From positions 54,374,001-54,438,000 of the forward strand of contig OX597831.1 of assembly GCA_951406725.2 (NCBI GenBank): a stretch of DNA of 64,000 nucleotides, read 5' to 3'. The DNA comes from Octopus vulgaris. Its lineage: Eukaryota. The notes below the pieces were generated by a model that ran no database searches, had not been told where the DNA came from, and worked only from the letters and a program-made list of their open reading frames with translations. Below, in pieces: positions 16,913-48,144 of this stretch. A program made the translations under genes and the position numbers. The first letter of the stretch is position 1; the number at the start of each line of letters is the position of its first letter.

Positions 16913-17049
16913 ATATTTTTTTGCCTGATGATGTTCAATTGTGTTAAAAATGACATCAAGACACCTCGGTAATATACCCTGGTCAACTGGGGTACCAGTC
17001 ATTGTGTACGTCTTACCAGAGCCAGTTACACCATAGGTGAAGAGGAGAG
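16913..17049 (-). CDS. KIF23: KIF23 exon 6, P-loop ([19 protein letters not shown]...[22 protein letters not shown])
   Basis: Kinesin-6-type P-loop GVTGSGKT; acceptor ttgtcag, donor gtaaga; 137 nt. Confidence 0.97.
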
Positions 17050-17256
17050 CTGACAAATAGATTAAAAATCAAATCTCTTAGATTTTCATGCAATGTATTT
17101 ATTTTTATTATTTTATTATCTACAGAGGCTGAAAAGCTAGATATGAAAATAAGAAATCAAAATGAATCATACCCTTACAGTTCTATATTTAAGAGATGAG
17201 AAATTATGAGCATTATTTACATTCAACAGATATTTGTCCTCATTTTGTTTGTTGTT

Positions 17257-17302
17257 AACACAACGTTTCAGCCGATACACCCTCCAGCATTCTTCAGGTG
17301 TC
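17257..17302 (-). ncRNA. Minimal type-I hammerhead ribozyme motif (Penelope-like), sense to KIF23 pre-mRNA
   Basis: Minus strand GACAC CUGAAGA a-u-GCUG gaggguguau CGGC-u GAAAC GUU GUGUU: intact CUGANGA and GAAA core, stem I GACAC/GUGUU, loopless AC/GU stem III. Confidence 0.72.
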
Positions 17303-17411
17303 TTGGGGAAATTTCGAACCTGTGTTCTCATTCCTAAGGTGATTTTCTTTTAATAATAATAGCATCGAAAAATACCTTAGGGATGAGAACCCAGGTTTGA
17401 AATTTCCCCAA

Positions 17412-17457
17412 GACACCTGATGAAGGCTGGAGGGTATATCAGCAGAAACATTGTGTT
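17412..17457 (+). ncRNA. Minimal type-I hammerhead ribozyme motif, inverted partner copy
   Basis: GACAC CTGATGA a gGCTG gagggtatat CAGCa GAAAC aTT GTGTT; core intact, one G>A change in stem III. Confidence 0.65.
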
Positions 17458-17728
17458 AACAACAAGCAAGATGAGGACAAATATCTGTTGAATGTAATTA
17501 ATGTAAATAATGCACAAATCATAGCCTTATAATATCAGAATAGATAATGTCATTTAACATATTGGTTTCAAATTTTGGTACAAGGTCAGCAATTTTGAAG
17601 GTGGGGGTAAGTTAATTAAATTGACCGTAGTGCTCAACAGGTACTTATTTTAATGACCCCAAAGGGATGAAAAGCAAAGTTGCCCTCAACAGATTTTGAA
17701 CTCGGGATACACAGACAGCCAAAATACT

Positions 17729-17951
17729 TATTTCATTACTACCCACAAGGGGCTAAACACAGAGAGGACAAACAAACGGATTAAGTCGATTATACTGACC
17801 CCAGTGCATAACTGGTACTTACTTAATCGACCCCGAAAGGATGAAAGGCAAAGTCGACCTAGGCGGAATTGGAACTCAGAACGTAACGGCAGACGAAATA
17901 CGGCTACGCATTTCGCCCGGCGTGCTAACATTTCTGCCAGCTTGCCGCCTT
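17729..17951 (-). mobile_element. Young tRNA-derived SINE nested in an older copy of the same family (other copies 36194-36424, 36755, 45940, 46900, 56145, 59350, 63380)
   Basis: Conserved GGCGGCGAGCTGGCAGAA...GAGTTCAAATTCC...GTCGACTTTGCCTTTCATCCTTTCGGGGTCGAT body. The 36194-36424 copy has an 11-bp TSD AGAAACTGTGT. Confidence 0.85.
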
Positions 17952-20370
17952 TGAAATACAGTCGAAATACCACTAAGCATTTTGCCTGGCATGCTAACAA
18001 TTCCGCCAGATTACCACCTTAATGTTAATTGATATATTAAAAACAGATTGATATAGAATTTCAGTCATCATCATTCTTTTACACTTGGCTTCCATCACAG
18101 ACCAAATTAACTCATATCTGGAGTTGTCCTCTTAAACTAAGCAACCACATTTCATTCAAACATTAAGTTCAACATGTTTTCTACAGCTTGCTGTTCTTTC
18201 TATGCTCAACTACTGAACCGTGAACATTAGGTGCATTTTATGTGAAACCAGCACTAAAAAGGTTGTCATGTCCTCAACAAGACAAGGCTAAGATCTTCAT
18301 AATGCCACATTGTAAAGTTGTTGGCAAATGAGTAGATAAAGTGAACTGGGTGCATGTTGTCACAATACCAGCACTAGTACTATTTCTATTGTCTTGTACA
18401 CTGCAAAACAAAAACCATCTACTATAATAATACATATGTGTTTTTCTCCGTCACAACATATGAATGAGAAAGGAAGGAGTGATAGATGAATAAGGAACGA
18501 AGGAGTGATGGCAAACTGGTAGTGGGAGCATTTCAACTTTGTGTGCGTATATGTGTATGTAAAAGGGAGGTATGTAAATATTTGTGTGTGTGTGTGTGTG
18601 TGCAATGGAAGTGGGATGGTGAACTTCAACGCTGAAAAGAAAAATCAAACAGCGTTTCAATTCTGTGTGAGTATATGTATGTGTGTGCATGTACAAGAGA
18701 AGTATGTGCGAGCTAGTGTTCTTCCAGTAACAGTGATTGATGTCACATCTCAAAAGACAATCACCAGATAACATTGACAAGTGTGTTAATTTGATTTAAA
18801 ATCCATATTTATATATAAAGTACTACAATTAGCCATCATTTTTGATGGTATGGGGCCAGCTAGTTATATACAATAATTCCTTTTGTAATACTCTAGCTAT
18901 CATCATCATCATTTCATGGCTGCTTTTCCATGCTGGCATGAGTTGAATTGGTCATCACCATCCAAGTTAGTTTTATACAAAGTTACTGCCATCCCAATAG
19001 CATCTCACATATCCCATTTCTGACAAGGTTTCTGCATTTGGTTACCCTTTCTATCATCAATCACTCTACAGAGTATCCCGAATGCATTTTATCATGGAAT
19101 CAGCAGTGACAGAGAAAGACTGAGAAGTCTTCTCTACCCTATGTTGCTGTCATTCATTTGTTCATCAGCTCCAAAGAAGTTATATCTAATCTTTAGCAAG
19201 ATTAAAGGAAGAGAGAAAGGAGTAAAAGAAATGAGTAACAGAGATAAGTGGGATGGATGTCAATAATAAAAGATAAATGAAGGGAAATAAAGGAAGAGTG
19301 TAATGGGGAGGGGGAGGATAAGGATAGCAGATATTGTACAGAGGACACAGAACATGAATAAATATAATTCATTGTCATATGTTGTTTCATAGGCAGCATA
19401 ACGGAATAGAGTGGTATGGGTAAATAGGGTAAGATAGACCCTGATGTAGATATTAACCCTTTAGTGTTTAAACCGGCTGTATCCGGCCCAAATATTCTAC
19501 ACATTTTATGCTCAAACTGGCCAGAACCAACATCTCACACCTACCCTGCAATGTCATTCTAAAAATAAGCAATTACATCTTTCCTGGCTTGAAGCTACAA
19601 AATAATATCAGTTAAATTTTTTTTAATGTGAATAAATAAAGATTATTTTTGCCAAATTAATATGAATGCTAAAGGGTTAAACATACCTTTTAACAATAGG
19701 TTCAAGACCACAAATTTTGAGGAAAAGATAGATTGACTTGAGAGCATGACAACTAAAGTCAGACTTGGTAGGTTTTGTAATAGGCATGGCTGTGCGGGTA
19801 AGTAGTTCACTTCTCAACCACATGGTTTCAGGTTCAATCCCACTGTACAGCACCTCGAGCAAGTGTCTTCTACTGTAGCCCAGGGCCAACCAAAGCCTTG
19901 AGTGAATTTAGTAGGCAGAGATTCCATCATGCGTGCATGCTTGTGCCTCCTCTGATAGACAGTACCATAAACAGATAAGTGAAATAATGTAAGGAACTTT
20001 ATCTGAGTGTGTCTCTTTAGAAGCATATGGTCAGGAATTTGTGTGGAGAACAATTGATTATATTTACCCCAGTACTTGTATGTTAGATATTTCATCAACC
20101 CCAGAAGAATGGAGGGTAAAGTGGATCTCAGCAACATTTGAGGATAGAACATAGACTAAAAACTACAAGGCATTTTGTTAGTTTTAATCACTCAGCTAAT
20201 TCTCTACCTTATACAATAATGACAACAATCCTAACAACAAATTCTTTACAAAAATTTTTCAGTCAGCATTATCAACATCAATAATTTAATGCTTGTTTTC
20301 TCCTCACCCATAATCATGATTACAATGATTTTAAAAGACAAAATTCAAATGTTTAAACCTAACAACTTAC

Positions 20371-47569: not shown

Positions 47570-48144
47570 GGCATACCTACATGAGTGTTTTCCCCAACTT
47601 TGTTTCCTCATAACTTTGAGAAAGATGAGGATTTTTTTAATGAAATTTTCTATAAGTATTTTTCAGGGTGTGTAGATTATGATTGTATCAGAAATTAATG
47701 TGGGAGAAAAAAGTTGGTGAGTATGCACACTTACATACTGACACACATCACATGTAAATCGACAAAATAAAACTAGAAATTTCGAAAAATATTGTGATGG
47801 GTATCCGTATGTATGTGTGCGTGCTCGCTATTTTTTATTTTTCATATCAAGTTCCGATATAATCATTATCTAAACCATCTGAAAAGTATTTGCAGAAAAT
47901 TTCATTAAAGAATACCTATTTTTCTAAAAGTTATGAGGAAATAAAGCCAACTCATGTCAATTTTCTTCACCTGTGAAACTCCTCTCCCCACTCCCGGAAA
48001 TTTTTTCACAGCAAATTCCGATGTAATCGGAATCTACACCACCTGGAACATATTTGTAGAAAATTTAATTAGAAAATATCCATTTTCTGAAAGTTCTGAG
48101 GAAACGAAGTCAACGTGGGTGGGGGACACTTGTGTAGGTATGCC
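47570..48144. mobile_element. Non-autonomous TIR element
   Basis: TA|GGCATACCTACA...TGTAGGTATGCC|TA termini with extended imperfect inverted similarity and internal subrepeats. Confidence 0.7.

Follow-up and report, generated by a model that had tools for sequence, protein, structure and literature searches.

Results

The window, a 64-kb stretch of the Octopus vulgaris genome, carries on its minus strand an exon (positions 16913 to 17049) with AG/GT ends. We read it as encoding the P-loop of a kinesin motor and assign the host gene to kinesin-6, because the exon matches the Pfam Kinesin model at 1.9e-14 and its best solved structures are 5x3e and KIF20A. The more specific label KIF23, which the first-pass annotation had used, is an assumption. 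That annotation placed a pair of hammerhead ribozymes about 210 nt upstream of the exon. The predicted cut of the ribozyme in sense orientation, after 17262, lies 212 nt upstream, so the distance and the kinesin-6 P-loop stand, the name KIF23 being presumptive.

Two inverted arms of 145 nt each, 88% complementary and separated by 19 nt, were found at 17203-17347 and 17367-17511. Arms of ~135 bp with a ~20-bp spacer had been described here. The inverted arms are real. What looked like a spacer belongs to the 5' portion of the plus arm, which meets the other arm directly at 17349/17352, leaving no separate loop. RNA of the minus strand folded into a single hairpin of -209.6 kcal/mol (z = -25), and 0 of 100 shuffled sequences folded as well. 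Rfam matches of the palindrome to miRNA precursors were rejected, because they scored below the gathering cutoff and mirror nothing more than the long hairpin.

The palindrome belongs to a single insertion, 17178-17516, flanked by a 13-bp target-site duplication with one mismatch (plus strand, 17165-17177 on the left and 17517-17529 on the right). The duplication was spotted by eye and was missed by the automatic scan of our 55-pair survey, described below. Between its two copies lie two 5'-truncated end repeats (pLTRs) of a Penelope-like retrotransposon, which we aligned to a natural family copy, L070, as the reference for both arms. The minus-strand pLTR (17178-17349), sense to the host pre-mRNA, matches positions 91-264 of L070 at 90% and has lost the head and the (AAT)n stretch. 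The plus-strand pLTR (17352-17516), inverted and antisense in the host pre-mRNA, matches positions 76-236 at 91% and begins in an (AAT)n remnant. The window copy consists of these two truncated ends only, the tRNA-like head of the family being lost. A 3' tail of ~30 nt is found on the minus-strand arm alone (17178-17207); in full-length elements this tail continues into the ORF, as seen from ORF continuity in the copy L227. No empty site for the insertion was found among the contig joints listed, and a contig from a second organism that spans the kinesin exon enters the element by 17 nt only, too short for a bridge.

At 17608-17955 lie two neighbouring fragments of a dispersed SINE-like family, which is present in many copies across the window (inverted-repeat pairs I1-I3, I8-I10 and I25). 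A second short palindrome, at 47628-47917, has 125-nt arms (75%) and a 40-nt gap; it contains no hammerhead core and is not a member of the Penelope-like family described here.

Scanning the 64-kb window for a CUGANGA...GAAA core with a 5-bp stem I returned two matches, one per strand and one per arm, which bears out the claim of a minimal type-I hammerhead in each arm. In both, CUGANGA is followed by an extra A, then by a short stem II and GAAA, and lastly by two bases and UU, and the hallmarks of the minimal type I (CUGANGA, GAAA, NUH, stem I and an extra base after A9) are all present. The minus-strand motif spans 17257-17302, with CUGAAGA at 17297-17291, GAAA at 17269-17266 and a GUU triplet; the plus-strand motif spans 17412-17457.

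Both motifs are damaged. The pair that closes stem II, 10.1-11.1, is G-C in the family, U/U in the minus (sense) copy and G/A in the plus copy. It is missing in just 1 of 49 scored family arms and in both copies of the window. At 17289 and 17270, the contig majorities from four runs are the G-C letters of the family. The self-complementary palindrome of dimer helix III (15.1-16.1) is kept as ACGU in the sense copy and replaced by ACAU in the plus copy. The description of the minus-strand core as intact thus holds for its CUGAAGA, GAAA and GUU boxes and fails for its stem II pair. In isolation, the sense motif had a hammerhead-fold probability of 8e-6, as opposed to 0.18 for a family-type copy. 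Both window hammerheads are predicted to be inactive remnants, and the sense ribozyme is predicted from computed folding to misfold even alone, with no need of a lock by the other arm. The sense copy may still cleave with the help of protein, or in a trans dimer with another family RNA, since all core bases and the ACGU are retained. Folding energies may also understate activity, because the anole ribozyme, according to the available text of PMC11167929, cleaves only with its protein.

Rfam hammerhead models, proposed as a check of the motifs, gave no match in the window at the gathering score and none in 17100-17600 at E values up to 10. This negative does not discriminate, because a family-type copy was likewise unmatched.

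The palindrome has thousands of counterparts in the genome, likewise decayed end pieces of a Penelope-like element standing back to back. With the window stretch as query, the 2.8-Gb genome yielded 4598 candidates; full palindromes of the same design were present in 22 of 40 scored places, a share that is biased because the query itself favours palindromes. Exact matches to the 35-nt hammerhead occurred at 2155 genome sites, to the head at 2521, to the head-to-head apex at 510 and to the junction of ORF end and head at 177, as opposed to 0 for each reversed control. The counts 2521, 510 and 177 are not usable as ratios because the search patterns differ in length. The family is also abundant in the runs X18, X19, X20 and X11, which fall under four organism labels, and is therefore common to related species. 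The window copy is ~6% diverged from the family majority, which makes the insertion an old one.

We surveyed 55 head-to-head pairs from the collected loci, some of which had been picked as palindromes and a few of which are duplicates. The ~30-nt tail was present on one arm only in 49 pairs, on neither in 4 and on both in 2, and the window copy obeys this rule. A target duplication of at least 10 bp flanked 33 of the 55 pairs, compared with 2.3% of mismatched flank pairs. The window locus holds a head-to-head pair and not a head-to-tail tandem, and so differs from a non-LTR retrozyme array. At the 510 apex sites (e.g., L046-L060), the two arms meet exactly where the tRNA-like head begins. The centre is 2 nt, either AC/GT or the form derived from it by CpG decay, and often one of the arms measures just 11-33 nt.

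We propose that the element protein nicked both DNA strands ~13 bp apart, that two cDNAs were primed at the end and at the start of the tail, which are both known as internal start sites, and that both cDNAs stopped early and were then joined at their truncated ends. The two cDNAs would have been copied from RNA of one source, because the arms of a pair share a subfamily allele in 45 of 51 pairs, the window pair being an exception. The same shared alleles would suit a single cDNA that folded back and primed itself, or a longer palindrome that was shortened by a later deletion, in place of two primed cDNAs. So would the fixed short hairpin that forms the apex at 510 sites, and self-priming is proposed in the available text of PMC3846280. 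However, the arm ends differ in 49 of the 55 pairs, one lying at the tail end and the other ~30 nt earlier, as with the two RT start sites and two-strand priming in the available text of PMC11167929. The two arms are also truncated at different places at the junctions. We consider fold-back or deletion rather unlikely and retain the model of two primed cDNAs.

In longer copies, the arm is preceded on its 5' side by (AAT)n and then by a head of 75 nt, and in some copies an ORF that bears an endonuclease-like motif ends upstream of the head. BLAST showed 27 of 30 ORF-end loci passing straight into the head, the other 3 showing a few head bases; four of these 30 loci are duplicates of one insertion. 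Among 30 ORF-start loci, 21 had part of a pLTR in front of the ORF, its tail leading into the reading frame. Two more started at the head, next to unrelated flanking sequence, and another two were partial tandems. L227 (G000:C1:7950500-7957500), a near-full-length but broken copy, comprises an inverted pLTR, a truncated direct pLTR, the ORF and a 3' pLTR with tail. It matches Pfam RVT_1 at 5.8e-8, and its endonuclease has no Pfam match. The pLTR therefore flanks a single RT-endonuclease ORF, and every copy examined is broken. Compared by eye with the description in PMC8557442, the C-terminal endonuclease appears to have a GIY-YIG motif with two Cys in its core and no CX2-5CxxC linker, Pfam being silent. 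On these motifs, we place the family among EN+ Penelope-like elements (probably Penelope/Poseidon). The Penelope origin and inverted insertion of minimal hammerheads recognized at first pass were right, as the link of the pLTR to this ORF, the one-tail pairs and the target duplication attest.

The short, palindromic form, the tRNA-like head and the thousands of ORF-less copies would also suit a MITE, or a separate SINE of tRNA origin that has acquired its hammerhead tail from elsewhere. Of 30 hammerhead-selected copies, 11 begin within -7 to +3 of the head with no ORF upstream, as a SINE might; 7 have an ORF upstream. Yet in the 27 loci the ORF end is followed at once by this head, which also precedes the ORF in full-length copies. 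The ends are asymmetric and the duplications of variable length, unlike those of a MITE. An independent SINE would be a non-coding family apart from the terminal repeat of its partner, and this head belongs to an autonomous pLTR. A separate MITE or SINE family is largely refuted and highly improbable; the idea survives only in that solo pLTRs may act as their own sources. Very probably, an abundant Penelope-like retrotransposon left two 5'-truncated pLTRs at this locus in one old insertion, head to head in a kinesin-6 intron, with hammerheads that are damaged and predicted to be inactive and a palindrome that is likely a by-product of insertion.

A young PLE family with a 781-aa frame was tried as the partner and rejected: 30 of its endonuclease loci showed no pLTR similarity, and 16 wider loci contained no matching hammerhead. 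Its frames were intact in 16 of 150 scored matches; at four of the five loci L151-L155, a 333-479-aa frame lies upstream, and this pLTR is not shared. Other retroelements have inserted into the (AAT)n of the pLTR at L035, L136, L142, L147, L183 and L194. The insert at L035 has a 691-aa open frame, which we take to be R4/Dong-like. A GIY-YIG match at L108 is presumably a host SLX1-type nuclease exon and not a PLE. ARAGORN called a tRNA-Thr(GGT) at L031 (1341-1416, minus strand), away from the element.

The first-pass annotation had further suggested that the antisense arm could act as a lock, shielding the kinesin pre-mRNA from cleavage, and that A-to-I editing by ADAR or temperature could loosen it as a switch; we weighed this idea in the form in which selection maintains the lock. 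The geometry of the idea is correct. Since the antisense arm leaves the polymerase ahead of the sense arm, it would pair with the latter on emergence into a ~145-bp duplex, which pushes the ribozyme fold below 1e-48; the core boxes to be buried are those found intact above. However, the duplex beats the ribozyme fold by 69 kcal/mol at 37 C and by 89 kcal/mol at 10 C. Cooling thus tightens it, and temperatures of 10-37 C cannot open it. In simulated editing, changing every non-core, non-stem A to G left a gap of 54 kcal/mol, and making these positions unpairable still left 30, so that full editing retains at least 30 kcal/mol; in addition, seven A's lie within the ribozyme core itself.

Among the first 30 exact-core copies on contig 1, three of which are duplicates, 15 had an inverted arm upstream; antisense burial of a ribozyme therefore needs no selection. 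The arm covered the ribozyme in 12, and 18 of the 30 had no antisense arm over it, all copies being counted irrespective of genic context. Head-to-head pairing is the normal insertion footprint of this family, and the sense motif is predicted to misfold without the antisense arm. Divergence was 5.5% in the hammerhead core and 4.6% outside it, or, with base correction, 17 observed differences compared with 18.9 expected. The arms differed at 6.8% of sites within pairs and 7.5% between pairs (8/112 in the window pair), and this comparison gave no sign of gene conversion or selection on the hairpin. Cores and hairpin are thus not conserved beyond the rest of the repeat. The family copies descend from one source and carry no covariation. 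Since the transcript holds one sense ribozyme only, no dimer partner exists in cis. The protective lock has next to no likelihood in our judgment, and it is very unlikely that the palindrome acts on the kinesin gene as a switch. The ~145-bp duplex is likely an ordinary editing substrate.

Survivor bias without a switch offers a weaker form of this idea: a passive purifying filter would remove sense-intronic copies with working ribozymes, leaving copies that are locked or mutated. The window copy is both locked and unusually damaged at 10.1-11.1 (missing in 1/49 family arms), and retrozymes are reported to be excluded from Xenopus introns in the available text of a preprint (10.64898/2026.07.22.740005). 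Yet single minimal motifs showed no cleavage in vitro (PMC4209133, available text), which leaves selection little to act on. Damage is just as great in the plus arm, which the host gene does not transcribe, and one locus cannot show a bias. We judge such a filter improbable and keep to the reading of the palindrome as an insertion by-product.

Words resembling an A box and a B box occupy positions 8-18 and 51-61 of the pLTR head. The best match of this head among 30 genomic tRNAs was tRNA-Arg, with z about 7 against shuffles. ARAGORN at default settings made no tRNA call in 47 heads, and the Rfam tRNA models left the head unmatched. Conservation of the B box (2.4% vs 6.4%) was rejected as a sign of selection, having vanished on base correction (8 observed vs 12.5 expected, p = 0.13); neither the A nor the B box showed extra conservation after that correction. 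The 11 of 30 copies that begin within -7 to +3 of the head point to an RNA start there, and L244 and L261 are full-length starts at the head.

The coding strand of L227 contains 0 T4 runs in 2184 coding nt, where synonymous shuffles predict 3.2 (p = 0.027); seven control ORFs contain 1-9. In 74.7 kb of aligned sequence, with 22-31 copies compared, no T4 site recurred in more than 3 of them. There are almost no G4 runs either, which weakens the argument, and the lack of TTTT in L227 is modest evidence, at the level of sequence, for transcription by Pol III. For the family, we hold the balance about even on whether the tRNA-like head is a Pol III promoter that sets the 5' end of the RNA.

A more far-reaching possibility, which we hold tentatively and with more doubt than belief, is that the family is a coding Penelope-like element whose whole length Pol III transcribes, starting at a tRNA promoter that the pLTR has captured. 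The 2.4-kb ORF would have been purged of TTTT, and solo pLTRs would spread in the manner of SINEs, making the family a SINE and its autonomous partner in one. Such spread of solo pLTRs is feasible because reverse transcription starts inside the RNA.

Discussion

In this genome, hammerhead pairs arranged as palindromes mark past insertions and are not to be taken for host switches. The window locus itself is ordinary debris of little consequence; the unusual part is the pLTR family, whose end repeat opens with a tRNA-like sequence. We found no description of a tRNA-headed PLE in the literature searched, largely the main texts of openly available papers. One study annotates octopus PLEs and SINEs (PMC13282606), and the words ribozyme and palindrome are absent from its available text. 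Autonomous retrotransposons are thought to need Pol II (PMC10886601, available text). If the Pol III reading is true, a coding element with a tRNA-type promoter and without a Pol III terminator makes translation and retrotransposition of a Pol III RNA testable. The family would also illustrate one way in which Penelope elements could give rise to SINE-like ribozyme repeats of the Sm-alpha kind.

The insertion resembles those of known Penelope-like elements. In the available text of PMC11167929, the tail of anole PAc marks two internal RT start sites, and both strands are cut and extended; the ribozyme needs protein, is dispensable when insertion is reconstituted in vitro, and left no read ends where it would cut. 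Tails, duplications and inverted pLTRs that lack the tail are on record for Adineta Pen2a (PMC3846280, available text) and in PMC8557442. As far as the available texts on PAc (PMC11167929) and Pen2a (PMC3846280) extend, the octopus family shares with them a pLTR with a hammerhead, a tail that is the ORF start, an inverted tail-less pLTR placed head to head, a variable target duplication, and an RT followed by a C-terminal endonuclease. Unlike either, the octopus pLTR opens with a tRNA-like head and (AAT)n, whereas Pen2a has a putative TATA/Inr promoter; the window copy differs further in consisting of two truncated ends only.

The hammerheads are of the kind described for metazoan PLEs by Cervera and de la Pena in 2014 (PMC4209133). 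The available text of that paper reports opposite-strand pairs 100-700 bp apart and a single minimal motif without cleavage. Shared features are the extra base after A9, the short stem I, the lack of helix III, the palindromic 15.2-16.2 and the opposite-strand pairs. The octopus family has a stem II of 5 bp with a 10-nt loop, and both window copies, unlike the metazoan motifs of that text, have lost the conserved G10.1-C11.1 pair.

For the head, the closest precedents are Sm-alpha and TRIMp3. The SINE-like Sm-alpha/Sj-alpha elements of Schistosoma (PMC6765202 and PMC2770079, available texts) likewise join a tRNA-related Pol III promoter to a hammerhead. They are non-coding tandem repeats with canonical hammerheads and no ORF shown in those texts, whereas the octopus head sits in a protein-coding element. 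The TRIMp3 elements Cassandra, Helenus and Ajax (Kojima 2024, PMC10886601, available text) also have a small-RNA-derived Pol III promoter within a terminal repeat. They are non-autonomous LTR elements of 311-1263 bp, and their autonomous partners are argued there to require Pol II. As described in these available texts, the precedents are all non-coding, whereas the octopus head lies in the pLTR of a 2.7-kb coding PLE.
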